Positions 2 through 44,427 of a stretch of DNA of 64,000 nucleotides are shown in pieces. The position numbers and the translations under genes were made by a program. The first letter of the stretch is position 1; each line of letters opens with the position of its first letter. The notes below the pieces were generated by a model, which was not told the origin of the DNA, made no database searches, and saw only the letters and a list, made by a program, of their open reading frames with translations. Origin of the DNA: a virus (taxonomy: Duplodnaviria; Heunggongvirae; Uroviricota; Caudoviricetes); the IMG/VR virus record IMGVR_UViG_3300006092_000059, positions 12,516-76,515 of that record; one strand, given 5' to 3'.

Positions 2-535
2 AATAAATATGGATATGATTCTTTTAAATTTTTTATTTTAGAGAAATGTTCTAAAGAAATTCTACAGAATAAGGAGCAATATTATATTGATAATTTTAAA
101 CCTGAATATAACAAAAGAATAATTGCTGATTCAAGTAGAGGATTAAAATATGGCCCACAAAGTATAGAGCATAAATTAAAGACTTCTAGGAAATTAAGAA
201 AATTTTCTGATGAATTAGTAAAAGAAATTAGAAATCTAGCTAATTCTGGAGTTACCTATAAAGAAATAGGTGAGAGATTAAACATTAATCATAATTCTTT
301 ATCTAAATTAGTTAATGGTAGAACATATGTTGATTTACATAAAGGTAATATAAAACCTATAAATAAAAATATAAGATCTAAGCTTACAAAAGAGAAGATA
401 GTAGAAATTTATTATAAAGCTTTAAATAAAGAAAATCAGTATAAGTTAGCTGAGGAGTATAATGTAACACAAGGAACTATTTCTAGAATAAAAAATGCTA
501 AAAGAGACTATTCATGGCTAATTGTAGAATTATAA
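2..535 (+). CDS. GIY-YIG homing endonuclease, C-terminal part (5' end truncated by the window edge)
   Basis: Frame 2 translation reads ...KYGYDSFKFFILEKCSKEILQNKEQYYIDNFKPEYN, the end of a GIY-YIG catalytic domain as in I-TevI. It is followed by an HTH/NUMOD-like segment (GVTYKEIGERLNINHNSLSKLVNGRTY). The stop is at 533-535, overlapping the start of the giant ORF. Confidence 0.55.
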   Translation, partial: NKYGYDSFKFFILEKCSKEILQNKEQYYIDNFKPEYNKRIIADSSRGLKYGPQSIEHKLKTSRKLRKFSDELVKEIRNLANSGVTYKEIGERLNINHNSLSKLVNGRTYVDLHKGNIKPINKNIRSKLTKEKIVEIYYKALNKENQYKLAEEYNVTQGTISRIKNAKRDYSWLIVEL

Positions 536-9252: not shown

Positions 9253-9974
9253 TGTTTATTATAATTATAAAATTCTTCAAGAGTTTTTGTCCTCTTTACA
9301 TGATCTCCACTTCCTCTTTCAATTTTTTCTTTCCATTCTGGTAAAGATCTAGTATAAATATGTTTTATCCATACAAACTTAGAATGATGCCTACAAATAG
9401 GCCTTTTTACTTCTAAACCATCTTCATTAATATATCTACCTTTAATTATAGCTTTATGTGGATCTGGAAAATTTATAACAGCAGATGGTCTTACAATAGA
9501 TTTAATATGACCATTAGTATGATATTGATTATATTTTTCTATTGGTTGTCTTGTTTCAAAGTAAGGGTCATTTCCATACATTCTCCATGATAATCCTAAA
9601 GCATCAAACTTACCATATAATTTTTCTAATATAGTAAGATCTTCTTTTACATTCATAGTATTAGATGTATAAAATTCATCCGTATCTATAAATAACATCC
9701 AATCTATTCCTGTATAAGGTATAACTTGTTCACATGCATGTTTATAAGCTCTACACTGACTTCCTACCTCATTATCTTTCCAAGTATATACTGAAACAAT
9801 ACCAGGTTTTATAATACCTTTATCAGTAAGTTTATTTCTTAATTCACCTATACAATTTTTACTACCATTATCATATATCATAAAATGGTCAAACCCCACC
9901 TTTATATGGTGGAGTAGCCATTCTTCTAAATATTCATTTTCATCTTTTATAATAAGACAAACTGCAGTTTTCAT
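9225..9974 (-). CDS. GT-A-like glycosyltransferase (Glyco_tranf_2_4 / GT92-like)
   Basis: CLIIKDENEYLEEWLLHHIKVGFDHFMIYDNGS pattern and an LFIDTDEF DxD motif. Confidence 0.4.
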   Translation of the reverse strand: MKTAVCLIIKDENEYLEEWLLHHIKVGFDHFMIYDNGSKNCIGELRNKLTDKGIIKPGIVSVYTWKDNEVGSQCRAYKHACEQVIPYTGIDWMLFIDTDEFYTSNTMNVKEDLTILEKLYGKFDALGLSWRMYGNDPYFETRQPIEKYNQYHTNGHIKSIVRPSAVINFPDPHKAIIKGRYINEDGLEVKRPICRHHSKFVWIKHIYTRSLPEWKEKIERGSGDHVKRTKTLEEFYNYNKQCQIKESQS

Positions 9975-10339
9975 TTTACTTCTATAAGTACTTGTTTTTT
10001 AAAGTTATAAATATATTTTGCATGGTTAGCATTCATTAAAAAATGAGATAATTCTTCACACCATATATCTATACTTAATTCACCTATAGTAGTTTTAATA
10101 CCTCCATAGCTATTAATAGTATAAGAATTAAAGCCTCTATTATTTATTAAAGCAGCTATAGTTCTTGTAGTAACTTGAAATAACTCTCTGTTAGGAACTA
10201 TTATATCAAAGTCATTTGGTTTTTCATCTTTAAGAAGTTTTTCTAAACAACTTCCTACTATCCATCCTTCTGATATTAGTAATAAACTAATAATTTCTGC
10301 AGGTAAATCTCTATAAAATTTATTCTTTATATTTTCCAT
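9971..10339 (-). CDS. hypothetical protein, minimal nucleotidyltransferase-like
   Basis: WIVGSCLEKLL ... NDFDIIVPN resembles the GS ... DxD core of Pol-beta-superfamily nucleotidyltransferases. Weak. Confidence 0.3.
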   Translation of the reverse strand: MENIKNKFYRDLPAEIISLLLISEGWIVGSCLEKLLKDEKPNDFDIIVPNRELFQVTTRTIAALINNRGFNSYTINSYGGIKTTIGELSIDIWCEELSHFLMNANHAKYIYNFKKQVLIEVK

Positions 10340-12078
10340 TAATTTATTTGTCTAAATGTAATTTCTGGATTATTTTCAAGCCATATACTTAATAATCTTT
10401 CAAGTATAAACGTATGAAAAGTATAATAATCTAGACCAGTTTGAAGTTTTAAAGCATCTGTTGGTAAGCCTGCTTTATAATTAGCATTAGTAAATGCTTC
10501 TTCTTTAAACTCAGTTTCTAATAATTCAATAGCAGGTTTTATTACCTCATTTATATATTTTTTGTATATAGAGTATTTTCCTATCCAAAAATTTGAATAA
10601 ATGATATTTTTAGGCTCAATTAATTTTAAATTAAGCTTATGACATATTTTAGTAAATAGACTCAAAAATCCTGGATGAGAATATTCCGTAAAAGCCAAAT
10701 AATGTTTTTTTATAAAACTAGGAGATAATCCTATTATATCAGGAATTCCTTCAGCTTTTAACTCATTAAATATCTTTGTTACTAACTTTTTAGGAAGTCT
10801 TGTTTTATATGGAAACTTCCAACTAAATATTCCTAAATAATCATTATCTTTAAAGTCATTATTATCAATTAAATTAATAATAGGATTATACTCAAATAGA
10901 TAACTTTTTTCCTCTACAGTTCTAATTGGGTTGTATATAGGAGTATATTCAGTAGATTGATCTAAAGTATAAGTTATTCCATAAATTTTTAAATCTTCTG
11001 GAGTAACTTCTGTTGATTCATTCATTAGGAATTCACAAGCTAATCTTAAATTATCAATTCTTTGCTCAAAATGATTATTAGTTTTTACAACTTCAGAAGC
11101 TTCTTTTCCTACTTTTTTGAAAGATCTATCTTTTACTAAACTTTTAACCCATCCATAATATTCAGATGTCTTCTCAGCAGGTAAAATTGTTGATACCTCT
11201 TTATCAATATAAAGAGAACTTCCTATTACAGGAATTTCTTTACAAGCAGCTTCTATTAGTTTAAGAGAACTTTTACATTCTGCAAATTCACTCTTTTCAA
11301 GTGGAGCTAATAAAATATCTATTTTATCATAAAGATCCATATATGAATCAGTAGATTTACCTTCTAAGACCTCTACTTCCATTTTTGGATTAACTTTAAA
11401 CAAGGATACAATCTTGTCCCATTTCTTATTAGGTTGATATCCTGCTATAGTAAATTTACATTTTTTTTGTATGTCACTATCATTAGCTAACTTTTGAACT
11501 GTAGTTCTAAGTAACTGCCAATCACTATAATGGGCTAATCCTCCACAAACACCTATAGATATCTTACCATTAGATTCTTCCTTTTTAGGAATGAACTGAT
11601 TTTCTCCTAAAGGTAGAAAATTAGGACTAATTGTTACATATTTATTAAAACTTACACAATGAGCAGCTAATCTTTGTGTTGATACAGTTACTATATCTGC
11701 AAGCACTATTAAACCTATTAAAGAACTATAATCAGTTTTACTCTGTATATGATTTTTAGGAAGTTCCCAAAAGTCATCAACATCTTGAACTAATTTAAAT
11801 CCATATTTAGATTTCCAGCCAGATATTTGAGCAATTGGATTAGAATAGATCCAATTTACCCAAACAATATCGTAGTTTTTAACTACTTCTTCTTGTAATT
11901 CATACTTACCTGGTTCATGTTCTAAAATATCTACCTCAATAATTGCCTTTTCTCCTTTTATTTCAATTTCTTTACCCCTTAAATAAGAAAGGGGAAGAGC
12001 CACACGGTGATACCTTGAGCCACTTCCCTTCTCTATTAATCCTAAAATTTTTACTTGTTTCATCTGGCAAATATACAA
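10339..12078 (-). CDS. GT-B-type glycosyltransferase-like protein with an extra C-terminal domain
   Basis: KSSLKLIEAACKEIPVIGSS resembles the GT4 E ... GLPLIEAMACGxPVI motif. The ~220-aa C-terminal extension is unassigned. Confidence 0.35.
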   Translation of the reverse strand: MYICQMKQVKILGLIEKGSGSRYHRVALPLSYLRGKEIEIKGEKAIIEVDILEHEPGKYELQEEVVKNYDIVWVNWIYSNPIAQISGWKSKYGFKLVQDVDDFWELPKNHIQSKTDYSSLIGLIVLADIVTVSTQRLAAHCVSFNKYVTISPNFLPLGENQFIPKKEESNGKISIGVCGGLAHYSDWQLLRTTVQKLANDSDIQKKCKFTIAGYQPNKKWDKIVSLFKVNPKMEVEVLEGKSTDSYMDLYDKIDILLAPLEKSEFAECKSSLKLIEAACKEIPVIGSSLYIDKEVSTILPAEKTSEYYGWVKSLVKDRSFKKVGKEASEVVKTNNHFEQRIDNLRLACEFLMNESTEVTPEDLKIYGITYTLDQSTEYTPIYNPIRTVEEKSYLFEYNPIINLIDNNDFKDNDYLGIFSWKFPYKTRLPKKLVTKIFNELKAEGIPDIIGLSPSFIKKHYLAFTEYSHPGFLSLFTKICHKLNLKLIEPKNIIYSNFWIGKYSIYKKYINEVIKPAIELLETEFKEEAFTNANYKAGLPTDALKLQTGLDYYTFHTFILERLLSIWLENNPEITFRQIN

Positions 12079-12686: not shown

Positions 12687-13144
12687 TAGTCATAAATTGG
12701 AAAAAAGTGACTACAAGTACCAAAAGATGTACCAAATAATTTTTTAATTATAAGATATTCTTCTTCAGTAATTTCTTGTATATTCAAATTACTAAAGTAA
12801 TCTTCCTTGCTATAGAAAGTTAAAGATTCATTAGTACCAAATCCAAGTTCATATTCTTTTCTTCTAAATTTATGATTCCATTTATCTGGTTCTTTTAAAT
12901 ACTGCTCATAGGTAACAATAACACCATGTTTATTTTCCTTTGAAGGATATTCAATATACTTATTATAAGAACTTATTTTATCAAATTGTTCTTCTGTAAC
13001 ATTTCCTACTTCAAAAAAGGTATCTAATATGTCTTCAGTTTTCTTTCTATTCTTAAGATAATCTGTCTCATTACATATTATAAAAGCTTTTACATCAAAT
13101 TCATCAGCGTAATCAGCTGACATCTTAATTAAATAATATTTCAT
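12686..13144 (-). CDS. hypothetical protein (N-terminus paralogous to the 13949..14458 product)
   Basis: MKYYLIKMSADYADEFDVKAFIICNETDYLKNRKK aligns with MKKYYLLTFNEDWADEHYVPALECFTEEDFNKWKK. Confidence 0.4.
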   Translation of the reverse strand: MKYYLIKMSADYADEFDVKAFIICNETDYLKNRKKTEDILDTFFEVGNVTEEQFDKISSYNKYIEYPSKENKHGVIVTYEQYLKEPDKWNHKFRRKEYELGFGTNESLTFYSKEDYFSNLNIQEITEEEYLIIKKLFGTSFGTCSHFFPIYD

Positions 13145-13962
13145 TAAATTAATTCATTTAAAGATTTTATTCGTTTATATCCAACATTATATCGTTGATT
13201 ATGTGGAGTATCATATAAGAAAGTACATATACCTGCTTTATTTAAAGCTATGAAATTATCATAACAATCATCTACAAAGATATCAATCCCACTCTCTTTA
13301 GCCACTTCTACTTTGGATTGTCCACTTCCTACACAATATACAGGTTTTGTTGGAAATCCATGCATATCAAGCCATTTAATTGTAGTTTCAACAGGAATAG
13401 GTCTAGATGTAATATAACAATGAGGTTCAAAAGGAATATCTGTTGGTTTTAACAAAGGTTTTAATCCTAAGTAAAAATCATTAAGAGTTCCTTTTTCTCT
13501 CATAGCATCAAATCTATTTCTAATTTCTCTATCAAAATACCAAGCTGTAGCTACATCTTTAATATTGTGAAGCTCTCTCCATGCATTAATCCAATCACAC
13601 AACACTTCATCAATATCTAAGCCTATTTTAGGTGTTGCTAGATAGTTGTGAGGTCTATCATCTCCTTGTGGATAAATCTTATAATAATCAACTAGGAACA
13701 TTGCATTACACATTACATGAGCTGCATGTAGCAATCCAGTTTCTTTATCAAAATCTTCTCCACTTTCAATAGCAGTAAGATGTCTTTTTAGACTTCCTAT
13801 TACTCTGCTCCATTTCATTCCTTTCCGCCAATTATTATCAGCATATTTAGCTGCTCCGAAGGTTAATACTTTTGCTAATTCATTAATAGCAGTAGGTGAG
13901 AGCAAATCCTGCCTCACCTTACCACTATCAAATCTTAATCCTTTGTCTTCATTCTGTTGCAT
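13144..13962 (-). CDS. bifunctional nucleotide-sanitising enzyme: N-terminal all-alpha dATP/dGTP-diphosphohydrolase-like (MazG-related) domain fused to a HAD 5'(3')-deoxyribonucleotidase
   Basis: N-terminus LRFDSGKVRQDLL ... AAKYADNNWRKGM ... LLHAAHVMCNAMFLVDY matches the phage dNTP-diphosphohydrolase N-domain pattern. The C-terminus has HAD motif I GLDIDEVLCDW, as in NT5C DxDGVL. Confidence 0.5.
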   Translation of the reverse strand: MQQNEDKGLRFDSGKVRQDLLSPTAINELAKVLTFGAAKYADNNWRKGMKWSRVIGSLKRHLTAIESGEDFDKETGLLHAAHVMCNAMFLVDYYKIYPQGDDRPHNYLATPKIGLDIDEVLCDWINAWRELHNIKDVATAWYFDREIRNRFDAMREKGTLNDFYLGLKPLLKPTDIPFEPHCYITSRPIPVETTIKWLDMHGFPTKPVYCVGSGQSKVEVAKESGIDIFVDDCYDNFIALNKAGICTFLYDTPHNQRYNVGYKRIKSLNELI

Positions 13963-16814: not shown

Positions 16815-17115
16815 TATGATATTCTTCCTTTAATTTTTCTTGTAATTCAAATAAAAATTTCCACTTCTCTTGATCTTTAATTTTATGTCGTTTAAATTCC
16901 CACAGTTGATGTTCTTCTGGAGTCATTAATATTATATTCTCTTTTTTAAGTCTGTATGAAGGATACAGTCCTTTTGGTAGTATATGAGAAAATTGCCAGT
17001 GCCATTGAGAATGCCCTTTTCCATGTAAAGGTAGTCCACTAATCTCAGATTTATGTTCACGTTCTTCCCAAATTATACTAAATAAATGCGCTTGATTTTT
17101 TATGTTATCCTTCAT
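16792..17115 (-). CDS. hypothetical protein, possible HNH-like nuclease
   Basis: His-rich core HGKGHSQWHWQFSHILPKG. Weak. Confidence 0.25.
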   Translation of the reverse strand: MKDNIKNQAHLFSIIWEEREHKSEISGLPLHGKGHSQWHWQFSHILPKGLYPSYRLKKENIILMTPEEHQLWEFKRHKIKDQEKWKFLFELQEKLKEEYHNGRSTRN

Positions 17116-17533
17116 TTTGTCTAAATATTACAAGCATAGATGGAAAAGGAGCAGAATTTTTACTCTTTCCAAATTTCAATCTACCCTTAATAAATCTTAT
17201 TTCTTGCTGTCCATAAATATATTCATGAAAAGCTATTGTATCAGTTCTTGCAGGTAGTAAAGCAACTACTACAGCTCCTTTTTGAGCTTCTTCATATGCT
17301 TTCTTTATCCATAATTTTGATTGATTATATGGAGGATTCATCCAACATATATCTTTAGACCAGTCTTGAACTAGTCCATTTTTCTTAACATCAAAGAATT
17401 TCTCACATTTGTTTGTATTAATATCTGCACAAACATCTAATGTAAATTTAAATTCTTCATTTAAGATTTCAAATAACCATTGAGGAGTTTCCCAAGTGTT
17501 ATTTTCACTACTAAACATTAATTCTGTATTCAC
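17105..17533 (-). CDS. dam: phage Dam-like DNA N6-adenine methyltransferase
   Basis: ETPQWLFE ... DVCAD ... WMNPPY (the NPPY catalytic motif). Small Dam_MT architecture. Confidence 0.6.
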   Translation of the reverse strand: MNTELMFSSENNTWETPQWLFEILNEEFKFTLDVCADINTNKCEKFFDVKKNGLVQDWSKDICWMNPPYNQSKLWIKKAYEEAQKGAVVVALLPARTDTIAFHEYIYGQQEIRFIKGRLKFGKSKNSAPFPSMLVIFRQNEG

Positions 17534-22326: not shown

Positions 22327-22925
22327 GAGAATTCTATTAAATCTTTATTGTAATTATAAATCTCTTTTATAGGATTAAGAGGATCCCATAAATCATTTTC
22401 AACAGGAATTTCCTGTCCAACATAGGTTTCCATATGTTTTTTCCAGAATGGATGCTTATGCAGAATCATCCAATTACTAAATAAAACCTTTTCTCCTCTT
22501 TCATTTATGATTGTTTGTGGAAATAATGCTTTAAAATCTTTTGTAGTAGCACTATATTTTCCTAACTTTAATAGTTGTATATCAATAGTGTATTTTTCTG
22601 GAACAGAAAATACATACATAACTTTTCCATCTTCCATATCATAATTAGTCTTGTAACATTTATGATTCTCTAGATAATTCTCAGTAAAATTTTTAAAGTT
22701 TTTACTAAAAGTTTCAGGTTGAAACAATAAATAAATACAATCCTTTAATGGATAATTATGGTCATTTAAATACGCATTTCTATAACCCATATTTATAAAA
22801 TACTCAAACAATCCTATACCTAACATTAATGGCTTTAAGCCATCAAATATATCATCATCAAGAATTATTGGTAAAATAAATCTTGTAGTATCATTAAATC
22901 TAGCTTTCTTTACTGTATTAATCAT
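22320..22925 (-). CDS. hypothetical protein
   Basis: 201-aa ORF. Confidence 0.4.
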   Translation of the reverse strand: MINTVKKARFNDTTRFILPIILDDDIFDGLKPLMLGIGLFEYFINMGYRNAYLNDHNYPLKDCIYLLFQPETFSKNFKNFTENYLENHKCYKTNYDMEDGKVMYVFSVPEKYTIDIQLLKLGKYSATTKDFKALFPQTIINERGEKVLFSNWMILHKHPFWKKHMETYVGQEIPVENDLWDPLNPIKEIYNYNKDLIEFSW

Positions 22926-23898
22926 TGAATATATTGGCAGTTATTTCTCCATTATTTTCAATTACTTCACGTCTATAAGTCCAACTATTATTAGTTTGAT
23001 ACCAAATTAAGTCTGCAATTAGCTCAACTAATCCTTTGACTTTTTCTCCTTTTTTATTAAAACCTCCTCTTAAACCTTTATCCCAATCTGATTCCTTCAT
23101 TTTGTAAATTACAGGAGTACCAGGATAGACAGTAGATTCTACCATCCATTTAAAATTAAGTTTATAATTAAGAAGTTCAGAGTTTTTCTCTTTTAAATAA
23201 TTAAATAAAGCTAATCCATAAATAACCATTTGTAACCAATATTGATATTGATCAATACTATTTTCAAATGTATCTACAGAATAACCAGTTGTTTTAACAT
23301 CAATTAAATCTATTTCTTTTCTATCATGATATATTTTTACCATATCAAGAATAGCTTTGAAATCTATATTATTGATTTTCCAGTTTATCTCTAACTGTGT
23401 AAATAATTCTTCCTTATCATTAATTTTAAAATAATGATTAGTATAAGAATTAGTAAGTAAAGAAGTAACAACTGCTTCTGCTTTAGACATTAAATCATTT
23501 GTATATAATAATTTCTTGTCCTTTGTAGCAGTAAGTTGTTCTTCAAAATAGGATTTTCCTTCCTTATCAAATCTTTTTTGAATAGATTCAATATCTCCCT
23601 TAAATCCACTTTTTACATAAGATTTTTCAAAATTACTAGGATCTCCAGGATAATCTTTTTCAAGTCTTAGGTAGGTACTTGTAAGTTCCCACATCATAGC
23701 AGTAGGCTTCTCAGCACTTGCTAATAAATATCTCTCTGAGAATTTCTCAGGAGTAGTAAGAAGGCAATCTATTATTCCTCCTAATAGTAAAGATTCACTG
23801 TCCTTTTCCTCTGCATTGAGCATTTTCTTAAAATAAGCTGGCCCAATTTGCAAATTCTTTAGTCTAGAGAATGATAAAGGCTTATTGAAGCTTTCCAC
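22918..23898 (-). CDS. PD-(D/E)XK nuclease, RecB/Cas4/lambda-exonuclease-like
   Basis: IDLIDVKTTGY (D ... DxK) followed by QYQYWLQMVIY (RecB-family QhxxY motif). Confidence 0.5.
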   Translation of the reverse strand: MESFNKPLSFSRLKNLQIGPAYFKKMLNAEEKDSESLLLGGIIDCLLTTPEKFSERYLLASAEKPTAMMWELTSTYLRLEKDYPGDPSNFEKSYVKSGFKGDIESIQKRFDKEGKSYFEEQLTATKDKKLLYTNDLMSKAEAVVTSLLTNSYTNHYFKINDKEELFTQLEINWKINNIDFKAILDMVKIYHDRKEIDLIDVKTTGYSVDTFENSIDQYQYWLQMVIYGLALFNYLKEKNSELLNYKLNFKWMVESTVYPGTPVIYKMKESDWDKGLRGGFNKKGEKVKGLVELIADLIWYQTNNSWTYRREVIENNGEITANIFND

Positions 23899-24280
23899 GT
23901 CTTTTCTTTAAACTATGTTCAATCTCTGTTGCTGTTTTAGTATGATGACATTTATCACAAAGAAGTTGTAATTCTTCTTTTTTACAAAAAAGTCTTCTTG
24001 TAAATACAGCAAGGTCATCATAGGATTTCAATGTACCACACGGAGTAATATGATCTACATTAATATTCTTTTGTGCAAACCAATCTTCACATGAAGCACA
24101 CTGAAATTCCCATTTTAACCTCTTATTTTTACTTTTAGAAGGTCTTCTTCCTTCTTGAAGTACCTGATATTTCACAGGATACTTGTTCCATAACATTCTT
24201 AATCCACTACGTATAAAAGTCCAATATCTACTATGAGTCCATAGAGGATATATTTCACTTTTAGTTCCTTTTCTTAACAA
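23882..24280 (-). CDS. HNH endonuclease
   Basis: CASCEDWF ... NVDHITPCG ... CDKCHHTKT is an HNH zinc-finger nuclease core. Confidence 0.65.
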   Translation of the reverse strand: MLRKGTKSEIYPLWTHSRYWTFIRSGLRMLWNKYPVKYQVLQEGRRPSKSKNKRLKWEFQCASCEDWFAQKNINVDHITPCGTLKSYDDLAVFTRRLFCKKEELQLLCDKCHHTKTATEIEHSLKKRRGKLQ

Positions 24281-24305: not shown

Positions 24306-25982
24306 TTAATACAAACTATCTAGAATTCCATTACTATAAGCAAATTTCTTATCTCCATCAAATTCAATGTTATTTGCGATAACATCTTCTTTCTTGGTAG
24401 CTTCTGCTATTTGCTCTTTTCTATGTCTAATATAACCAATTAAATAATTAGCTACATCTTTTCCTGTAGTATCTTCGAAATCATAATTTCCAAAGTAATC
24501 AGAAAAACCATGTAGAATATCTTCTAATGAAGGTTTTATTTTACGACTAATAATTTCTTTTGTATATCTTTCTGCAAAAGTAACAATTCCTACACAAATA
24601 AACAACCAATTAGATATTTTTGTGAAATTAAAAGTTGGAGTATGTATTCTAAATTCTAAGGTACGATTTGCACTGAATATTAAAGAATTAAAATTTACAA
24701 GATAGTATCTTGTAGGTATGCCCCATTTTTGCCCACCAAGAGGGTGAATAAGAGAGGTCATATTATAAGAGTCATTCATTTCTGGAACTTTCCCATCAGT
24801 TAAAAACTCAAATATTTTATTAAAATTCTTTCTTACATCATTTGAAAATTCGTGCTTAGTATTGTATATCTTTTTGTACAAAGAGTTAGTCATTATTCCT
24901 ATATTAGGAAGTCTTTGATTGTATCTCTTCTGTTTTCTTAAATATTTTACTTCATCTGATTTATATAAAGGAAATATAGAATAAATTTCATCTTGGATAG
25001 TTTGCATTATTATCCAATATGCTAGAATTGTAAGTTCATCATATTTTATATTACCAATATGTATATGCATTGAACATGTAGTATCAAACTCACATTTACT
25101 GTTGAGTTCACCACATATTCTTTTAATAGCTTGTAATCCTTTGTCCCCTTGCATAGGAACTGTTGTATATTCATAAGGCTCTATACCAGAAGCTCTTCTT
25201 AAACTACCATCTTTTAAAGGAACTAATCCTAAAGGCCCTAAAAGCTTTTGTGGAACAGTACCATTACAAGACTCTAGCTCAATACCAAATGTTTTTCCAA
25301 ACAAAAGTTTGCTAAGTTCTGATGTACGCTGATTTGATGGATACACTGTTTTATCATACATATCTTTGATAGTACGAAATGAAGGATTTCCTGCTGATGC
25401 ACTATAATCAAATGGTAGATTTTTATATCTTATAACTCTGGGAGTTACTATACTTTTTAATTCATCTTTATCAAGATTACTTTTTTTGTAGTAGAGGTCA
25501 TTCCATTTACATGGAATATATCCCATTGCTAAAGCTATTTTTTCATTCAGACAGGCTGTTGTTTGGGAAGTATGATATCTTTCAACTGTTTCTACAACTT
25601 CTTCAGTTCTTTTAAAGAAAGCTCTATTTCCTTTAGTGTCAATAAATCCTTCTATAAGATCTTTATTTTGTTGTAATTCTTCTATTAATTCATATTTACC
25701 TGTAGTAAAATTTAAACCAATCTTACCACTTGATAATCTATACCATTCTCCATCAGAAGCATCATCAGAATACCCTATCCAGAAACAGGTTACGCCTTTT
25801 TCATGATATTCTTTATGATTCTTATAATAGATACATTTACTTCTTGGTACAACTTTTCCTTCAACTGTTTTTACCTGTTTTTCCTGAGTAATTTCCATAC
25901 CTTTCTTTTTTTTAGAAGACAATTGCCGTTTCGGAGTTAACTGGATTTTGGCTTTTTTGCTCTTCTTTTGTAATGTGCTCAT
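24306..25982 (-). CDS. amidoligase (COG2170 / YbdK / GCS2-like carboxylate-amine ligase) with a Lys-rich N-terminal tail
   Basis: KTFGIELESCNG matches the YbdK TLGIELE substrate/Mg site. CSMHIHIGN matches YbdK GQHVHVGC. The first 28 codons (KKSKKAKIQ ... KKKKG) overlap the GATase gene by 70 nt; an alternative start is at 25898. Confidence 0.55.
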   Translation of the reverse strand: MSTLQKKSKKAKIQLTPKRQLSSKKKKGMEITQEKQVKTVEGKVVPRSKCIYYKNHKEYHEKGVTCFWIGYSDDASDGEWYRLSSGKIGLNFTTGKYELIEELQQNKDLIEGFIDTKGNRAFFKRTEEVVETVERYHTSQTTACLNEKIALAMGYIPCKWNDLYYKKSNLDKDELKSIVTPRVIRYKNLPFDYSASAGNPSFRTIKDMYDKTVYPSNQRTSELSKLLFGKTFGIELESCNGTVPQKLLGPLGLVPLKDGSLRRASGIEPYEYTTVPMQGDKGLQAIKRICGELNSKCEFDTTCSMHIHIGNIKYDELTILAYWIIMQTIQDEIYSIFPLYKSDEVKYLRKQKRYNQRLPNIGIMTNSLYKKIYNTKHEFSNDVRKNFNKIFEFLTDGKVPEMNDSYNMTSLIHPLGGQKWGIPTRYYLVNFNSLIFSANRTLEFRIHTPTFNFTKISNWLFICVGIVTFAERYTKEIISRKIKPSLEDILHGFSDYFGNYDFEDTTGKDVANYLIGYIRHRKEQIAEATKKEDVIANNIEFDGDKKFAYSNGILDSLY

Positions 25983-27654
25983 CTAGATATAACCAGGCTT
26001 CATCAAGCCATTTTACTAATTTTTTTCTTAAACTTTCTGTAACTGGAAGAATTTCACTAGTTTCAGGATCTTTACTAAAATCCTTATCAGCTAATGCTTC
26101 AGAAGCTTCATTTACTGTATTCATTGCAGCTATATAAACATTTAACATATCTACATCAGAATCAGTAATAGCACTATGCATTACTTCTGCATTTTCTTCT
26201 TCGTCTTCTGTATTATCTGTAAGTTCTAGAGTATTCTGTGATGGTTTAGTATAAGTACATTTCTTAAAGAAACCAGTAGAGAATTCATAAACTTTACCCT
26301 GATTAAATAAAGGAGTAAATTTACCTGTAATATAAGCATCAACACTTCCTCCAATAGTATTATAACCACCTTCTCTTAGGTTGTCAAATAATAAGGTTCT
26401 AGCACTGAATTTTCTTTTAGTAGCAGGATCAAAATTCCAAGAATGTTTAGTTCCTATTTTTCCATCTAATTTACCTTCAGAATATAATTTACAAATATCT
26501 TTTAAATCTTCTTCAGAATTTAATAACCAGCCATTCCAGAAATGATACACTTTACCTGTACCAGAATAATTTTTACTTGAAGGAGCATTTCCATTCTCAT
26601 CTAATAAATAACTAACACCTTCTTTTAGTTTCTGACCAAGTATATGTCCATTTTTATGATATCTACCTTTAACAAACACTACTCTATCATTACCAAAAGG
26701 ATTAAAGAATGGCTCATCTTCAATTAGAAAATCCCCATTATTGTCTCTACGGGTGATTTGATCAGCCTTTTTAACCAACTTTTCTGGGTATCCGATGAAG
26801 ACTTCACTAGCTCTTCTCCTGTTACTGCCGCTAGAAGTTGTAGAACTCCCACTACTGGAACTGCTCGTAGTAGTTCCCTTGCTCTCTCGATTAAATTGTT
26901 TCTTTAATGTTGAAATTTGTCCATCACTTATAATATGGATTTTATTAGGTTCAAAAGCTTTTATACAACCTTCTTTATCATCATCATCACAAATTGCCAT
27001 TAATGATTCTTTAATAGATGAAATATAAACTGCTTTTTCTCCTCTTTTTTTCCAATAAAATAAAGGTCTTTCACCAGTAGAGTCTTCACCTATACTAGAT
27101 TTACCTCTAAATACATACAGTTTATTCTCATCAGTAAAACTCCATAAAAGAGCCGCATAACCTTCATAATCATTAAGTACATTTATATTAGTTTCAGTTG
27201 CTCTACTATCTACTAAGATATTTAAAAGCTCAATACTGTCAACATTATATTTATACTTACTGCCATATTTAGTTCTTAATTCTTCTCTGTTTCTGATAAT
27301 ACCATTATGTGCACCTACAGCATATGGAACTACATTTTTTAATCCTACTTTTTTTCCTTCTTTATGATTTTCTTCTGTATAAAATCCAAATGGGTGAGCA
27401 TTATCTTCAGTATGACTTCCTACTGTAGACTTTCTTGTATGACCTATTACAGTAAAATATTTTTTGATTGGTTTAAGTGAAGTTGCTTCAATAAAATTGA
27501 AAACATTAGCCTTAGCTCCTACCCCTTTTTTTAATAAACCATCCCAGTAAATACCACAACTATCATCACCTCTTCCGAGATTGTACATCCATAAAATTTT
27601 TAATTTGTCAGGATCAGGTGCTGACACACCATTATAACCTACTAATCCGCACAT
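25912..27654 (-). CDS. class II (Ntn) glutamine amidotransferase domain protein with a Ser/Thr-rich linker and an unassigned C-terminal domain
   Basis: N-terminus MCGLVGYNG has the catalytic Cys at position 2, as in PurF/AsnB/GlmS-type amidotransferases. It has an internal SSSSSGSSTTSSGS low-complexity linker and no PP-loop SGGxDS. Confidence 0.7.
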   Translation of the reverse strand: MCGLVGYNGVSAPDPDKLKILWMYNLGRGDDSCGIYWDGLLKKGVGAKANVFNFIEATSLKPIKKYFTVIGHTRKSTVGSHTEDNAHPFGFYTEENHKEGKKVGLKNVVPYAVGAHNGIIRNREELRTKYGSKYKYNVDSIELLNILVDSRATETNINVLNDYEGYAALLWSFTDENKLYVFRGKSSIGEDSTGERPLFYWKKRGEKAVYISSIKESLMAICDDDDKEGCIKAFEPNKIHIISDGQISTLKKQFNRESKGTTTSSSSSGSSTTSSGSNRRRASEVFIGYPEKLVKKADQITRRDNNGDFLIEDEPFFNPFGNDRVVFVKGRYHKNGHILGQKLKEGVSYLLDENGNAPSSKNYSGTGKVYHFWNGWLLNSEEDLKDICKLYSEGKLDGKIGTKHSWNFDPATKRKFSARTLLFDNLREGGYNTIGGSVDAYITGKFTPLFNQGKVYEFSTGFFKKCTYTKPSQNTLELTDNTEDEEENAEVMHSAITDSDVDMLNVYIAAMNTVNEASEALADKDFSKDPETSEILPVTESLRKKLVKWLDEAWLYLDEHITKEEQKSQNPVNSETAIVF

Positions 27655-27657
27655 ATT

Positions 27658-28473
27658 TTAATTTTTTTCTTTTAATGCTATTATTTTTGGAAGTATTTCC
27701 AAGTATTTTTGTTTTAAATAACCACTCATCCATCCAGCTGAGTTAGCTTCTAATAAAGCCCATTTAGGATTTTTTCTGTGTTTGTCATAAGCATTTGTAT
27801 TGCCTTGTAATTTAATATCAAAGCAACAAATATCCATACCTATAACCTTAATAGCTTTCTGACAATCTTCTATAATATCTAACCAATTATCTGGATGCTC
27901 AAAAGCTTCATTTTTCTTTCTGTAATTATCTATATGTACTTCATGGATCCAAATAGAATTTTTATCATTTGGTTTCCAATCTCCATCATCTTTAGCTCTT
28001 ACACGCATCTTTCTTAATCCTGCAATATAACCAAAGTCTTTAGATATATAAATTCTTACTTCTTTTGCATAACCTAAATATTCTTCAAATATATAGGCTT
28101 CACAATTATGCTCTTCAATAAACTTTTCAAAGGCATTAAAATCATCAAGTTTATAAACTCCTAATGATTGTGAAGATGTTCTTCTTTTAGCTATGATAGG
28201 AAAATCCATTTCTGCTACCATAGTAGTAAGTTTCTCAGGATTATCACTCCATCTCCATTCTGAATGCTGTACACCTGCTTTATCAAATGCTTCTTTTGTC
28301 AATTTTTTATCTACACAGGTTTCTATTGCCTTTATAGGATTAATTTCAAAATCACATTTATAAGGAGTACACGAACCAAATCTTATACATCCTTTTCTAG
28401 ATGATTTAAATTGATTCTTTACATAGTCATAACTCTCATGCGTTGACGAGAATATTATTACTGGGTTGCTCAT
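27658..28473 (-). CDS. ATP-grasp ligase (RimK / glutathione-synthetase-like)
   Basis: FPIIAKRRTSSQSLGVYKL ... EAYIFEEYLGYAKEVRIYIS matches the ATP-grasp central domain pattern. Confidence 0.55.
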   Translation of the reverse strand: MSNPVIIFSSTHESYDYVKNQFKSSRKGCIRFGSCTPYKCDFEINPIKAIETCVDKKLTKEAFDKAGVQHSEWRWSDNPEKLTTMVAEMDFPIIAKRRTSSQSLGVYKLDDFNAFEKFIEEHNCEAYIFEEYLGYAKEVRIYISKDFGYIAGLRKMRVRAKDDGDWKPNDKNSIWIHEVHIDNYRKKNEAFEHPDNWLDIIEDCQKAIKVIGMDICCFDIKLQGNTNAYDKHRKNPKWALLEANSAGWMSGYLKQKYLEILPKIIALKEKN

Positions 28474-29086
28474 TTTCTTTTTTAATATTTAAATGTTTCT
28501 TTAATTCTGTAAATAGAGAATCTCTACCTACTTTGTATAAATTTCTGGAGAAAGTAATTAACTTATAAGTACCTTCATATCCCATTGCACCTTTTCTATA
28601 GGTTCTTTCTAATTCTTTAAATTGTGCTTTTTCATAAGCATCAAGATTATTACTATTAGTAGTATCTACTGCTATTAAACCAGTATAACCACTCTTAATT
28701 GCTAAGAATAATGCACAATATAATGTTATTATGTAAGAAATAGATTCAGCATTATGATAAAAACTAGATGTACCAAAATTTCCATAAGCTGCTGTAATTA
28801 TACCTTTTCCACAACAATTGGGAAAGCAACTAAGTGTAAATCTACCAAACTCTCTAGTTTTATTATCTTCTGTATCTATAAAAAGACTAACTATTGAGTT
28901 GATATAAGTTTCACCATTACCAAATTTAGCTAATGTGCTAGTGCCACCATCTTCAGCTGTAAAGGGATTAATTGTAGCTGTTAGCTTTTTACCTGTTATT
29001 TTATTTATTTCTGTTAAAATTTCTGCAAAAAAAGGTACAACACTTTCTGTTAAATGTGTTCCTGCTGTTTTTGTAAGTGTTACCAT
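28436..29086 (-). CDS. hypothetical protein (Gly/Thr-rich, Cys cluster CFPNCCGKG)
   Basis: 216-aa ORF inside the enzymatic cluster. No motif recognised. Confidence 0.4.
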   Translation of the reverse strand: MVTLTKTAGTHLTESVVPFFAEILTEINKITGKKLTATINPFTAEDGGTSTLAKFGNGETYINSIVSLFIDTEDNKTREFGRFTLSCFPNCCGKGIITAAYGNFGTSSFYHNAESISYIITLYCALFLAIKSGYTGLIAVDTTNSNNLDAYEKAQFKELERTYRKGAMGYEGTYKLITFSRNLYKVGRDSLFTELKKHLNIKKENEQPSNNILVNA

Positions 29087-29790
29087 GCTATAGTATAATT
29101 ATTATTGGCTAATAATATCTCATTTACTTTTGAAAAGTGTTTACATCCATAATAAGATCCTCTTGCATTATATAATTCAGTAGCAGGATGTCCTGCTTCA
29201 AGAATAAAATTAGTATGAGAATTAATTAAATGCTTATAAGATTTAGCATGTTTTCCCCATAAACAATAAATTATTCCTGTATGATATAAGCTTAATTCTC
29301 TAATAATAAATGATGTAAAAGGTCTCCACAGATCTAAATGTGCATCAGCATTCCATTCTTCTGTAGTAAGTGCTGAATTTAACAATAATACACCTTGTTT
29401 GGCCCATCTTGTTAAATCAGTATCCATATTAATTAATTCACCATTAAAAACATCATTTTCAAGTTCATTTCTTATAACTTTTAAACTTTCAGGTACATGT
29501 AAATCATTTTCACCCTTTTGGTATGAAAAAGCTAATCCATGACCTTCAGGTTTACCATTAACTATATGATAATATGGAGATTGTCCTAATATTACTACTC
29601 TTACATCATCCCAAGGAGTATATTTAAATGCATTAAACATATCTACTTGATTTGGAAGTATTCTTTTTTCTGCTTTTCTTTTAGTTAAATAAGATAAAAT
29701 TTTTTGACCTTCATCTAGTTCTAGAAATGGAGCTATTTTTTCAAGCCATTTCTTTTCTATATAAGGTTCTAATTTTTCTTTGTAGTTCAT
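29080..29790 (-). CDS. uracil-DNA glycosylase family 1 (UNG) fold protein with substituted catalytic residues
   Basis: Extended colinear similarity to UNG: GQSPYY (UNG GQDPYH), GLAFSY (GLCFSV), WAKQGVLLLNSALT (identical to the UNG WAKQGVLLLNAVLT core), HPATELY (HPSPLS), GCKHFSKVNEIL (GCRHFSKTNELL), IAW (IDW). The water-activating Asp is Ser and the following His is Tyr. Confidence 0.75.
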   Translation of the reverse strand: MNYKEKLEPYIEKKWLEKIAPFLELDEGQKILSYLTKRKAEKRILPNQVDMFNAFKYTPWDDVRVVILGQSPYYHIVNGKPEGHGLAFSYQKGENDLHVPESLKVIRNELENDVFNGELINMDTDLTRWAKQGVLLLNSALTTEEWNADAHLDLWRPFTSFIIRELSLYHTGIIYCLWGKHAKSYKHLINSHTNFILEAGHPATELYNARGSYYGCKHFSKVNEILLANNNYTIAW

Positions 29791-30053
29791 ATAAATTCTT
29801 CTACTGCTTTATCAGTTGCACTGTTTAGAGCATCTACTCTTCTACAATACACAGGATTTGAATTAAATGTTTTACTACCTTCCTTGTTACTTAAAGTATA
29901 CCAATACATTCCTGGTGTTATTCTAGATTCAAATACACTCAAATTAACTCCTTTATCAGCAATTAACCAAGTTCTTAATACTGAGTAAAATAAACCAGTT
30001 TTTATTTCAGGGAGTTTGAATCCTTTTTCTAATGCTGATTTTAATACACTCAT
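29787..30053 (-). CDS. hypothetical protein
   Basis: 88-aa ORF. Confidence 0.35.
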   Translation of the reverse strand: MSVLKSALEKGFKLPEIKTGLFYSVLRTWLIADKGVNLSVFESRITPGMYWYTLSNKEGSKTFNSNPVYCRRVDALNSATDKAVEEFI

Positions 30054-30054
30054 A

Positions 30055-30423
30055 TTAATATTTTTTTCTGTAATCTGAATAGTCTCCTGATTCTACTACT
30101 GTTCCGTGTCCATTACAATAATATAACCAAGCTTCTCTTGTCACACCATCATCTCCATCTATTTTAGTAAGTTCTCTTTTATAGAATCTTGGATGCCCTT
30201 CAAGACCATCCAATCTACTAAGAGTAACATCATCTACTTCATAAACTTCAACTGTAATTTTACTTACTTCTTGTGTTCTTGAAACATATGGAATTCCAGC
30301 TGCATGCATTACCATTTTATCAGCTGTTTTACCAGTTGTAATTAATGGGCTACTTGTTAACAATCTGTTATTTCCATACCCTTTTCTTAATGTACCATAC
30401 ACTGATACTAAATGTTTACTCAT
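30055..30423 (-). CDS. gamma-glutamyl cyclotransferase (AIG2/GGCT-like)
   Basis: N-terminal VSVYGTLRKGYGNNRLL matches the GGCT YGSL ... G motif. 122 aa. Confidence 0.55.
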   Translation of the reverse strand: MSKHLVSVYGTLRKGYGNNRLLTSSPLITTGKTADKMVMHAAGIPYVSRTQEVSKITVEVYEVDDVTLSRLDGLEGHPRFYKRELTKIDGDDGVTREAWLYYCNGHGTVVESGDYSDYRKKY

Positions 30424-31436
30424 TTTATCTTTTTGTTTATTTCTTCTTTTAGTATTTTGTATCCTTCTTCTACTCCAAAATAAGCTATTACATCAGCAGG
30501 ATCTTTACATCCTGTTTCTTCATAAATTTTATTTGGAATATTTATCCATTTGTATCCTCTATGATTAAGTTTTTTATTTGCAGATTTTCCTGTTTCATCA
30601 CTATCCCAAAATAGGAAAATGTTTTCATATTTTTCTTTAAAAACACTATCATATTTAATTAAAATAGCAGATTCTGCTTCATTTTGTGTATTAATAACAT
30701 CTGAATGAATCTTAGATAAAACAATTCTATCTTTTCTGCTTTTAGTTATTATTAGATTTTTAGATTTTGGATTTTGAATCTTATATAGCCCTTCAATATG
30801 TTTTTGACTTATATTACCAATCCATGTAAATTCCTTATTCAAGGGAGTATAGATCTTTTTCTTATCTATAATACCATCTAATAAAAATCTGTAGGCAAAT
30901 TTTAATTCTTTTCTAAGTGGAAAAGTTTTTAAACTGCCTTCTTCTCCAATCCATAATTGGCTAATAGAATAGATTTCATTTTCTACTAAATCTTTCTCAG
31001 AAATTCCATATTGTTGCCAATATTCTAATTCATCTTTAGTAAAATTTTTACTTCTAAATCTTATTTCTATAGGTTTTCTTGTACTTATTTTTGGAAGCTT
31101 AATAGTCTCTCCTAAAATAATAGTTTTCTTTTCTGTAAGATCTATGTTAAAATCATTACAAATTTTAGTACAACTATCATTATAGTTTAAACCAAATAAA
31201 CTACTTACAAATTTAAAACAATCTCCACCATCATCAGCTCCAAAATCATAATAGTACCAATCATTGGTTTTTTTATTAAACCCTATTGAAAAGCTTGGTT
31301 TTTTATCTTTTCTAAATGGACTTAAATATAATTTTTTCTCCTCAAAAGGAAAATAAAACTGAAAAATTCTGTAACTGTCTATTGCTCCTAAGATACGCTT
31401 ATGAAGTGGTAAATCATATTCACTTGTTGAATACAT
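30420..31436 (-). CDS. Toprim-domain primase-like protein
   Basis: NIFLFWDSDETGKSA resembles the Toprim DxD ... G motif of phage primases. Weak. Confidence 0.3.
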   Translation of the reverse strand: MYSTSEYDLPLHKRILGAIDSYRIFQFYFPFEEKKLYLSPFRKDKKPSFSIGFNKKTNDWYYYDFGADDGGDCFKFVSSLFGLNYNDSCTKICNDFNIDLTEKKTIILGETIKLPKISTRKPIEIRFRSKNFTKDELEYWQQYGISEKDLVENEIYSISQLWIGEEGSLKTFPLRKELKFAYRFLLDGIIDKKKIYTPLNKEFTWIGNISQKHIEGLYKIQNPKSKNLIITKSRKDRIVLSKIHSDVINTQNEAESAILIKYDSVFKEKYENIFLFWDSDETGKSANKKLNHRGYKWINIPNKIYEETGCKDPADVIAYFGVEEGYKILKEEINKKIK

Positions 31437-31441
31437 TTTGT

Positions 31442-31471
31442 TAAATAAAAAGAGGGGAATTGCGCCCCTCT
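31442..31471 (-). terminator. rho-independent terminator downstream of gene 31498..32082
   Basis: Perfect 7-bp GC-rich stem AGAGGGG/CCCCTCT with a 7-nt loop. On the - strand it is followed by TTTTATTTA. Confidence 0.5.
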
Positions 31472-31497
31472 TGTTATATTCGATTTATTCTAATTTC

Positions 31498-42930: not shown

Positions 42931-43749
42931 TCATTTGTAGACTGTTGCAACAGGTACTGGAAGAGATTCTAAGTTATATTTTTTGATAAGAGAAGCAGCA
43001 GCGGAATAATCAGAATTGTTAATAGTACTAATTATTATTTCTGCTAAGTTACTCCCATTTTCAATTTCCCCATGTTCCTTTACAAATTCTACAGCTCTTA
43101 GAGTGTTATCCCATACCCATTTAATAAGAGTGTCATCAAAAATCCAGAAATTACTCAAAACTCTATACTCAAATCTGTTTTGTTTGAGTTTTTCTCTGTA
43201 ATCTCCAGCTTTTCCATAAAGGTCTCTTCTATATAAGTCTGTATCCATTAAAATACTAGGAACTGCTAAGTGTAAATCAAGAGCTTTAACTACAGCTAAC
43301 ATATTTCTACCATCTATTGAATCAAATTCAAGATGTATATGCCCACCACAACTTCTTAATGTACCATCAGGAGATGGTCTTTCCATTTGCTCACCTTTTC
43401 TCCAAGCATCAAAAGATGGTTCACAACCAAATTCAGTTGCTTTAACATCTACTAGTTCTTCATAAGGAAAATGAGCAGATGCTTCTGTTCCTATATCATA
43501 AGAGTCTGGAATAATATTTTTCAGGTATTTCAAACCATAACGGATATTATTGGTGAATTCTTGCAAATCACTAGCTGGTGGTACATTGAATTCTACAGCA
43601 ACATTGTCATGTAGAAATGCAAAGCCATCCTTATCCATTGGCATTGGTTTTTCTTTTGTTCCCATTCCTACAATAGGAATAGAAGATTTGAATTTGTCTC
43701 CTTCTTTGAGAAAAAATTCTGGGTCTGTTCCAAATTTTGTTATCTTCAT
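42931..43749 (-). CDS. second amidoligase-like protein (COG2170/YbdK-like)
   Basis: N-terminus KFGTDPEFFLKEG (corresponds to GIELEF) and SCGGHIHLEFD (corresponds to the YbdK HVHVG motif). Confidence 0.45.
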   Translation of the reverse strand: MKITKFGTDPEFFLKEGDKFKSSIPIVGMGTKEKPMPMDKDGFAFLHDNVAVEFNVPPASDLQEFTNNIRYGLKYLKNIIPDSYDIGTEASAHFPYEELVDVKATEFGCEPSFDAWRKGEQMERPSPDGTLRSCGGHIHLEFDSIDGRNMLAVVKALDLHLAVPSILMDTDLYRRDLYGKAGDYREKLKQNRFEYRVLSNFWIFDDTLIKWVWDNTLRAVEFVKEHGEIENGSNLAEIIISTINNSDYSAAASLIKKYNLESLPVPVATVYK

Positions 43750-43950: not shown

Positions 43951-44427
43951 CTATTCTTTTACTTGCCAGTCAATTTTAGGACAATATTTACCTTTAAAAG
44001 ATTTCCAACCTTCTCCTATAATATCTGAGGTTTCAGATAAATTACGTGATACTGAACTCTGTGGAAATACTTCTTTAAAGTAATAAACGATTAATAATAT
44101 TACCACTGATACTGCTAATATAATTAACAATGGCCCAAGAATTGCCCAGAATCCATGTTTTACAGTAGTACCAATAAATACTCCTGCAAGTGAAAGAACT
44201 GCATAAGCCATCAATGTATTAACAATATTTCTTCCAAATGCTCCTGTTTCTCCACTTATTCCTTTATAGATAAGCCCAATCCAAGTAATAGGTAACATTA
44301 GGGTTGCCCATACTAATGCCCAGAAATAATCACAGAAATTTTCATTTGGTTCATCATTTCCAAACCATCCTGCATAATTAAGTTTCCAGAATTTATAATG
44401 CCACGAGTTGTTTTTTGTAAGTTTCAT
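43951..44427 (-). CDS. integral membrane protein
   Basis: 158 aa with ~4 predicted TM helices, immediately downstream of the NAMPT gene. Confidence 0.4.
   Translation of the reverse strand: MKLTKNNSWHYKFWKLNYAGWFGNDEPNENFCDYFWALVWATLMLPITWIGLIYKGISGETGAFGRNIVNTLMAYAVLSLAGVFIGTTVKHGFWAILGPLLIILAVSVVILLIVYYFKEVFPQSSVSRNLSETSDIIGEGWKSFKGKYCPKIDWQVKE

Follow-up and report, generated by a model that had tools for sequence, protein, structure and literature searches.

What does a set of amide-forming enzymes act on when a protein with the fold of a DNA-repair glycosylase is encoded in its midst? The question is raised by a 64,000-nucleotide stretch of DNA from a Caudoviricetes virus (IMG/VR record IMGVR_UViG_3300006092_000059, positions 12,516 to 76,515; the whole stretch is hereafter called the window). 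Seven consecutive minus-strand open reading frames (ORFs) at 24306-30423 encode an amidoligase, a glutamine amidotransferase (GATase), an ATP-grasp ligase, a 216-aa protein, a uracil-DNA glycosylase (UDG)-fold protein, an 88-aa protein and a gamma-glutamyl cyclotransferase (GGCT). The answer we favour, at about even odds (a probability of roughly 0.5), is that the enzymes would carry out stepwise amide ligation on an acceptor other than DNA, and that the UDG-fold protein is a co-expressed accessory drifting from repair toward a non-catalytic role.

The cluster continues the replication module of a crAss-like phage

The window has a GC content of about 29%, carries nearly every gene on one strand, and encodes PolA, a DnaB-like helicase, Sak4, a primase, a PD-(D/E)XK exonuclease and the large subunit of ribonucleotide reductase. 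A nucleotide search with the locus against 50,697 phage records gave no match. The nearest annotated relatives of its UDG and amidoligase proteins all belong to Crassvirales (Cellulophaga phage phi14:2, cr108_1, and Bacteroides and Flavobacterium crAss-like phages), and the window is that of a crAss-like phage.

The first-pass annotation, made from the sequence alone, had described a run of seven tightly packed genes, and both the ORF listing and the table of junctions agree. From the amidoligase to the GGCT gene, the junctions are -71, +3, -38, -7, -4 and +1 nt, i.e., the genes overlap or nearly abut. The amidoligase has two candidate start methionines, and the true start is probably Met29 (nt 25898) rather than 25982; with that start, the 71-nt overlap disappears. 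The GGCT start overlaps the primase stop by 4 nt, and the only strong terminator-like hairpin is found upstream of the primase, at 31472-31450. As the cassette continues straight from the primase, it is not a separate unit, and the hairpin probably bounds the transcription unit to which the cassette belongs. A sigma-70 promoter scan found fewer matches than in shuffled sequence; the consensus is unsuited to a Bacteroidota host and the result was disregarded. The locus is a replication-module operon that carries a variant of a widespread phage amidoligase cassette.

The enzyme families of the cassette

Hidden Markov model (HMM) scans placed the proteins in the families that the first pass had named, i.e., Amidoligase_2, class II GATase (Cys2), ATP-grasp, family-1 UDG and gamma-glutamylamine cyclotransferase (GGACT). 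Membership of unrelated families, such as an AsnB with an intact PP-loop, was not seen: the GATase has the N-terminus MCGLVG and no PP-loop, and its profile matched PurF/GlmS with an E-value of 2e-14. The amidoligase carries GIELE at residue 233 and HIH at residue 306, and the GGACT protein, encoded by the first cassette gene after the primase, carries YGTLRKG. As a single sequence the ATP-grasp protein scored below the Pfam gathering cutoff (22.4 bits against 27); its family profile matched ATP-grasp enzymes in the PDB (E 3e-11), and it is homologous to g038 of phi14:2 (BLAST 6e-30). Two of the enzymes have additional regions: an N-terminal domain of about 230 aa with no family match in the amidoligase, and a Ser/Thr-rich linker followed by a C-terminal domain of about 300 aa in the GATase.

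For comparison, 80 viral contigs were retrieved via the amidoligase and a further 80 via UDG-like proteins, and were annotated with family HMMs built for the analysis (individual contigs are given L numbers). The family of a further cassette enzyme, the COOH-NH2 ligase, is encoded inside the cassette in 66 related loci. In the window it was found 12.5 kb from the other members, beyond the region that the first pass had delimited.

The 216-aa protein has a GNAT fold by the fold test applied, with no Pfam GNAT match. A conserved CCGKGI stretch may occupy the position expected for the pyrophosphate-binding loop; the model has a pLDDT below 50 at residues 100-113. The protein is present only together with the clade of UDGs, described below, that have Ser or Thr in place of the catalytic Asp. 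It was also considered as a diverged COOH-NH2 ligase, class I GATase or other cassette family member, and rejected as such (hhalign probabilities below 1%).

The cassette occurs without a UDG in cultured phages

The amidoligase/GAT-II/ATP-grasp/COOH-NH2 ligase/GGCT cassette was described comparatively by Iyer, Abhiman, Burroughs and Aravind in 2009 (as cited in PMC4431377). The UFV-P2/LUZ24 literature lists the same genes (PMC3890496), and the module has been termed a 'putative peptidoglycan modification module' (PMC11945000). It is annotated in, among others, the Pseudomonas phages PaP3 and LUZ24 (orf42-48), the phiEco32-like Kuravirus phages and Cellulophaga phage phi14:2. The likeness to this toolkit that had been proposed for the window is borne out by the shared families and the placement beside the primase.

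In PaP3 (Bruynoghevirus) and Escherichia phage 172-1 (Kuravirus) the order is COOH-NH2 ligase, short ORF, amidoligase, GATase, ATP-grasp, GGCT and primase/helicase, and a UDG is absent from both cassettes. The COOH-NH2 ligase, used as a cassette marker, was found in 306 cultured-phage records (Pseudomonas 121, Escherichia 94, then Vibrio, Aeromonas and others); these host genera are missing from the 102 records with a UDG relative. The cyanophage Lbo-JY46 (Leptolyngbya) has a long-form cassette; a cryptic UDG was sought there and none was found, the ORF after the amidoligase resembling a class I GATase. As more than 300 cultured-phage records have the cassette but no detectable UDG, the UDG is not one of its core components.

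In phi14:2 (g036-g046), the primase, GGCT, ATP-grasp, COOH-NH2 ligase, GATase, amidoligase, UDG, RusA and exonuclease genes lie in a row, and cr108_1 has an expanded version of the same row. The orientation of the cassette to the primase is the same in phi14:2, cr108_1, PaP3 and 172-1, and the adjacency is conserved in at least three unrelated phage groups. The first pass had not seen the arrangement of the window described. This holds in part: the phi14:2 row has been annotated since 2013 and the exact order of the window recurs in metagenomic relatives, whereas for the recurrent loss of UDG catalytic residues specifically beside the cassette, reported in the next sections, no description was found in the literature searched. 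The locus is a variant of the known cassette: a GNAT protein has been added and a Ser-type UDG embedded, the COOH-NH2 ligase is displaced, and a class I GATase is absent.

The UDG of the window has lost its catalytic aspartate

The UDG-fold protein is 37% identical to E. coli Ung and 40-45% identical to bacterial UNGs. In motif A, GQSPYY replaces GQDPYH, so that the catalytic Asp becomes Ser; in motif B, HPATEL replaces HPSPLS and the His is kept. The motif survey thus agrees with the first-pass description of a catalytically altered enzyme. Gln63, Tyr66, Phe77, Asn123 and His187 (E. coli numbering) are retained. In all nine of the closest homologs (56-100% identity) the Asp is replaced by Ser or Thr and motif B reads HPA[ST]EL, and all of those with enough flanking sequence share the gene order GGCT, small ORF, UDG, GNAT, ATP-grasp ... 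GATase, amidoligase. The dN/dS of this clade is about 0.19. In the next relatives outward, the Asp is kept and the gene directly follows the primase.

Mutational studies of Asp64/Asp145 in Ung/UNG are the basis for expecting reduced turnover from such a change, and for this reason the protein is plausibly one that binds DNA or uracil with strongly reduced or no glycosylase turnover.

Loss of UDG catalytic residues is concentrated beside the cassette

Cassette-bearing contigs have the generic order PRI, GGCT, ATP-grasp, [COOH-NH2 ligase, class I GATase], GATase, amidoligase, [UDG-like], [RusA], EXO, p201, and cassette-less crAss contigs mostly have PRI, (EXO), p201, UDG. A UDG-family ORF was found in 64 of the 97 cassette-bearing loci, about a third of these crAss loci being without any UDG. 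The median gap between the UDG and the nearest cassette gene was -3 nt. When UDGs were grouped into lineages (60%-identity clusters), the cassette-adjacent gene followed the amidoligase in 23, lay between the primase and the cassette in eight, and was inside the cassette, as in the window, in two; in one further cluster it was upstream of the GGCT gene at the edge of the locus, with only the downstream neighbour visible. In cassette-less lineages it followed p201 in 15, preceded the primase in five, and was elsewhere in the rest.

These positions bear on the possibility that the synteny is coincidental, in which case an ordinary crAss repair or anti-uracil UDG would lie beside an unrelated cassette, the Asp-to-Ser change would be tolerated or compensated, and degenerate forms would reflect relaxed selection. 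UDGs are common in crAss-like phages, their positions in cassette-less genomes vary (after p201, before the primase, or between the primase and the exonuclease), and the entire minus strand of the window is a single co-directional gene array. In cassette-bearing genomes, however, the UDG is essentially never found after p201; it lies directly against the cassette, and 66% of the gaps fall within +/-20 nt.

The same explanation was weighed against the pattern of residue loss. The catalytic Asp was lost in 20 of 33 cassette-adjacent clusters, most of which are also without His187, against 5 of 23 cassette-less crAss clusters and none of seven non-crAss clusters (Fisher p = 0.006 and 0.0007, in a comparison that ignores the phylogenetic non-independence of the clusters and in which the cassette and cassette-less samples were drawn by different queries). 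Chance proximity is favoured by the five cassette-less lineages with the same loss (e.g., contigs L009 and L118), and by the window UDG itself, which keeps four of five key residues and groups with canonical enzymes; it is disfavoured by the enrichment beside the cassette and by the Ser/Thr change being fixed throughout a clade that spans 56-100% identity. In a neighbour-joining tree without support values, the window UDG was placed among mostly canonical UDGs, intermixed with cassette-less ones and apart from the heavily degenerate proteins. It is the mildest variant of the trend.

The degenerate forms (e.g., DNRPVK/FSMLMS, GKEPY/NPQ and GDNPYA/NPNDAV) are full length (220-247 aa), match the UDG HMM with E-values of 1e-24 to 1e-65, and usually retain the uracil-contacting Asn. 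The dN/dS of the DNRPVK cluster is 0.38, compared with 0.14-0.31 in canonical groups, and the degenerate genes are under purifying selection. Intact genes with dN/dS below 0.4 weigh against coincidence, as does the presence of two different UDG copies in contig L040, where a degenerate UDG (GKQPYS, no His) abuts the amidoligase and a canonical-type UDG (GQDPYI/HPVAAV) is found downstream of p201; the two copies sit in different parts of the same unsupported tree. Taken with this evidence, we consider coincidental synteny doubtful. Sister lineages have lost catalytic residues repeatedly and more radically, which indicates that the UDG fold, where it adjoins the cassette, serves a purpose other than excising uracil, and the pattern gives some, indirect, support for a functional link between the two.

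Uracil-containing DNA was rejected as a general explanation for the catalytic loss, as several phages with degenerate UDG-like genes encode a dUTPase. In contigs L019, L020 and L029 (about 4494-6241), an insert of about 1 kb interrupts the UDG frame exactly within motif A (GQD / PYH), the two halves being otherwise canonical.

Is DNA the acceptor?

The UDG fold might turn a uracil- or thymine-type base out of the duplex while leaving it uncleaved; an amino-acid or amide adduct could then be built on that base by the amidoligase, ATP-grasp and GNAT proteins, and the GGACT protein could trim a gamma-glutamyl group. The first-pass annotation had taken the UDG scaffold as a pointer to a DNA base. 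Such a role would suit the tight coupling of UDG and cassette in three different arrangements, and the repeated loss of hydrolytic residues from a fold that keeps its uracil-contacting Asn under purifying selection; contig L040 also keeps a separate canonical UDG. Against such a role, the cassette is complete without a UDG in more than 300 cultured-phage records and in about a third of cassette-bearing crAss loci, and no fusion of a UDG to a cassette domain was found in the retrieved contigs. The pointer is not supported, given cassettes without a detectable UDG in PaP3, 172-1, Lbo-JY46 and about 300 other records, and the UDG is a member of the ordinary crAss replication and nucleotide-metabolism gene set (PMC7886860).

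Known thymidine hypermodification proceeds through formation of 5-hydroxymethyldeoxyuridine (5-hmdU), a 5-hmdU DNA kinase (5-HMUDK), and aGPT-Pplase, which has a helix-hairpin-helix (HhH)-glycosylase-like fold (Lee et al. 2021, PMC8989533). About 70 ORFs of the window (those of about 120 aa or more, apart from one of 2049 aa) were scanned with PHROG and Pfam, and no thymidylate synthase, dUMP hydroxymethylase, TET/JBP, dUTPase, 5-HMUDK or aGPT-Pplase was found among them; no PurZ-like gene was seen either. Searches of the window by tblastn gave only E-values above 5 with the ThyA-family protein of phi14:2, and nothing with a crAss dUTPase. These results agree with the absence of hydroxymethylase, thymidylate synthase and aGPT-Pplase homologs noted in the first pass; they also count against its DNA-base proposal, as no enzyme that would make a reactive C5 substituent (ThyA-type hydroxymethylase, TET/JBP, 5-HMUDK or aGPT-Pplase) was found in the window.

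Some GNAT-fold enzymes, such as Mom of phage Mu, are able to modify DNA bases. The GNAT protein of the window gave no Mom-like sequence match and no specific fold match, and a BFVD search with its model for a Mom-like or Fem-like relation returned only low-TM generic GNAT matches. Placement of the cassette in the replication module, beside the primase, in phi14:2, PaP3 and 172-1 would suit a DNA target. On balance, we regard hypermodification of DNA by the cassette as improbable, and we likewise give little credence to its more specific form, in which the UDG fold would serve the cassette as a base-flipping or uracil-pocket module without hydrolytic activity and the cassette would install an amide-linked pyrimidine adduct.

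A ThyA-family protein is encoded beside the cassette region of phi14:2 (g032, 358 aa; NC_021806.1 17940-19016; contig L170), 2 kb upstream of the primase; it is annotated as ThyX, yet its note cites PF00303. PF00303 is the ThyA family, and dUMP and dCMP hydroxymethylases belong to it as well. Of the loci examined, no more than five have homologs, and each of the five bears the cassette. The window encodes, at 13144-13962 (minus strand), a dATP/dGTP diphosphohydrolase N-terminal domain (PF18909, 1e-34) with a weak NT5C 5'-deoxynucleotidase-like C-terminal part, and phi14:2 likewise has a dATP/dGTP pyrophosphohydrolase.

A proposed chemistry for the cassette

From the known activities of the enzyme families, two GS/GCS2-type carboxylate-amine ligases, the Amidoligase_2 protein and the COOH-NH2 ligase, would form successive ATP-dependent amide bonds together with the RimK/PurK-like ATP-grasp protein. 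The N-terminal nucleophile (Ntn) glutaminase would supply ammonia or process glutamine, the GGACT enzyme would remove a gamma-glutamyl group as 5-oxoproline, and the clade-specific GNAT-fold protein could cap the product with, or transfer, an acyl group. The UDG-fold protein would be a Crassvirales-specific addition, co-transcribed and translationally coupled with the cassette and not core to its chemistry. For the acceptor, we consider a small molecule or a protein required at the time of replication, early in infection, most likely, and a DNA base less so.

Another proposal is that the cassette introduces or edits unusual peptide linkages, either in the stem peptides of peptidoglycan or in a protein of host or phage, and that the UDG has no part in this. 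RimK-type ATP-grasp and GNAT/Fem-type enzymes act on peptides, and GGACT enzymes act on gamma-glutamyl-amine links. The proposal is carried in the annotations of LUZ24-like phages, where it is itself only a prediction. The cassette is, however, found in the early replication module by the primase and not with lysis or structural genes, and its hosts (Gram-negative, Bacteroidota and cyanobacterial) have different wall chemistries. We regard modification of the cell wall or of a host protein as improbable.

Several observations weigh against stepwise ligation on a non-DNA acceptor with the UDG as an accessory, in addition to the two limits of the Fisher comparison given above. The consistent position beside the primase and, in crAss-like phages, beside a base-flipping fold would suit a nucleic-acid target equally, and amidoligase and amidotransferase genes have been noted in some thymidine-hypermodification clusters (Lee et al. 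2021, PMC8989533). In the literature searched, no experimental work on the function of the cassette came to light. The C-terminal domain of the GATase and the N-terminal domain of the amidoligase should define the acceptor, and their assignment failed: profiles of both against the PDB gave nothing significant, and Pfam scans of five homologs of each gave no recurring match. The accessory role itself is also open to challenge. An Asn at the Asp position can position water in the MUG and SMUG1 families and, by analogy, Ser or Thr may still do so, which would make the UDG of the window a slow glycosylase.

For the same two domains, a homolog search returned nothing, and a single-sequence AF2 model of the GATase C-terminal domain was unusable (pLDDT 34). 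A match of a cassette extra domain to the RPA70 OB-fold (profile against the PDB, E 0.3) was rejected as not credible.

Features of the locus and neighbouring genes

The coordinates of the cassette and of its neighbours are collected in Table 1.

Table 1. Positions, strands and supporting matches of the features discussed; coordinates are those of the window except in the last row.
Feature	Coordinates	Strand	Matches and remarks
PD-(D/E)XK RecE-like exonuclease	22918-23898	-	PF12684, phrog_412; downstream frame of module
HNH endonuclease	23882-24280	-	phrog_1985 5e-32; downstream frame of module
Amidoligase_2 (GCS2/YbdK-like carboxylate-amine ligase), long form	24306..25982	-	PF12224 9.7e-9, above cutoff; phrog_2443 1e-19
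Class II (Ntn, Cys2) GATase, 580 aa	25912..27654	-	PF13522/PF13537 above cutoff
RimK/PurK-like ATP-grasp ligase, 271 aa	27658..28473	-	phrog_2599 2e-6; weak Pfam ATP-grasp/RimK matches
GNAT-fold protein, 216 aa	28436..29086	-	GNAT fold by fold test; invariant motif CFP[NH]CCG..IIT
Family-1 UDG-fold protein, 236 aa	29080..29790	-	PF03167 6e-11; phrog_12143 4e-50
88-aa protein, clade-specific	29787..30053	-	no Pfam match; one weak PHROG match
Gamma-glutamyl(amine) cyclotransferase, GGACT/AIG2-like, 122 aa	30055..30423	-	PF06094 1.5e-20; phrog_2520 1e-27
DnaG-type primase (context gene)	30420..31436	-	PF01807 1e-9; phrog_12622 1e-32
Terminator-like hairpin	31450..31472	-	8-bp stem, 5 GC pairs, then T-run; upstream of primase
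COOH-NH2 ligase type 2	42931..43749	-	PF14395 3.7e-10; phrog_3815 3e-59
Two UDG-family genes of contig L040	11824-12525 and 20342-20992		

The frame from PRI to EXO-p201 is kept in about 80 loci. An HNH gene between the amidoligase and the exonuclease was seen mainly in the window clade (L004, L005, L011 and L012) and also in contigs L022 and L028; that of the window is probably a homing element. In contig L005 (14556-17089), a LAGLIDADG endonuclease ORF interrupts the amidoligase gene and leaves it as two ORFs, which suggests an intron or homing-endonuclease insertion. The slot of the 88-aa protein is held by weakly similar ORFs in contigs L004, L006 and L012.

Immediately upstream of the displaced COOH-NH2 ligase, NAMPT (phrog_448, 3e-132) and PRPP synthetase (phrog_619) are encoded at 44393-46875 (minus strand), and form an NAD-salvage pair. 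PrsA is encoded directly beside the cassette in Leptolyngbya phage Lbo-JY46, and a NAPRTase is encoded nearby in contig L010.

Elsewhere in the window, the sole large plus-strand gene is the ORF of 2049 aa (514-6663); contig L009 has a similar 2045-aa gene, in the orientation opposite to its own replication module. A glycosyltransferase-like trio at 8536-12078 (minus strand; GtrB-like, beta-1,4-glycosyltransferase-like, and a 579-aa glycosyltransferase matching phrog_7162 with E 7e-41) could target host surface glycans or, speculatively, DNA. A 142-aa ORF at 17105-17533 (minus strand) has a strong DNA methyltransferase match (phrog_111, 3e-56) and looks fragment-sized, and a Ppx/GppA-family phosphatase-like protein is encoded at 60620-61822 (minus strand; PF02541, 1e-6).

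Implications

Hundreds of cultured phages have the cassette, among them candidates for therapy against Pseudomonas and E. coli, as do many crAss-like phages; since 2009 its function has been a matter of prediction. The search for that function is narrowed by two regularities: the primase is always the neighbour of the cassette, and the cassettes of Crassvirales have a UDG-fold partner that repeatedly loses catalysis yet is under selection. Together these point to a connection with DNA replication. Tractable systems are available in phi14:2 on Cellulophaga and, as UDG-free controls, in PaP3/LUZ24 and the phiEco32-like phages.

Were DNA the target, the product would be a new class of base modification. 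If the UDG has been recruited for adduct formation, the route would be independent of the 5-hmdU kinase and aGPT-Pplase, and would give a UDG-fold pseudo-glycosylase its first role in writing, rather than removing, a base. If DNA is not the target, the UDG-fold proteins would form an unusual, naturally occurring series of glycosylase pseudo-enzymes whose role is linked to replication.

Comparison with known systems

The cassette of PaP3, LUZ24 and phiEco32 has the same five enzyme families as that of the window, the same co-directional tight packing, and its GGCT end beside the primase. The window differs in that its COOH-NH2 ligase is displaced by 12.5 kb, it has no class I GATase/C26 member, its amidoligase and GATase are long forms with extra domains, and GNAT-fold, 88-aa and UDG-fold proteins have been inserted.

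A further close arrangement is that of phi14:2 (Crassvirales, Steigviridae), another crAss-like phage whose UDG is also non-canonical (GKEPY, with the motif-B His changed to Asp). Its proteins are 26-36% identical to those of the window (31% for the UDG). The UDG gene of phi14:2 follows the amidoligase, whereas that of the window lies between GGCT and ATP-grasp; phi14:2 has no GNAT protein, and the ThyA-family protein encoded upstream of its primase has no counterpart found in the window. The thymidine hypermodification pathways resemble the locus as phage-encoded clusters reminiscent of natural-product pathways; their defining enzymes were not found in the window, and the glycosylase-like fold of the window is that of a UDG rather than HhH.

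The UDG-fold protein itself shares its overall fold and key pocket residues with E. coli Ung and human UNG, but has Ser (Thr in relatives) for the water-activating Asp64 and is encoded inside a biosynthetic cassette. The D4 UDG of poxviruses is a subunit for DNA-polymerase processivity, a role that does not need glycosylase catalysis. By analogy only, the protein of the window may, like D4, be a viral family-1 UDG fold retained in a replication apparatus; D4 keeps its catalytic residues, whereas the UDG of the window has lost the Asp.

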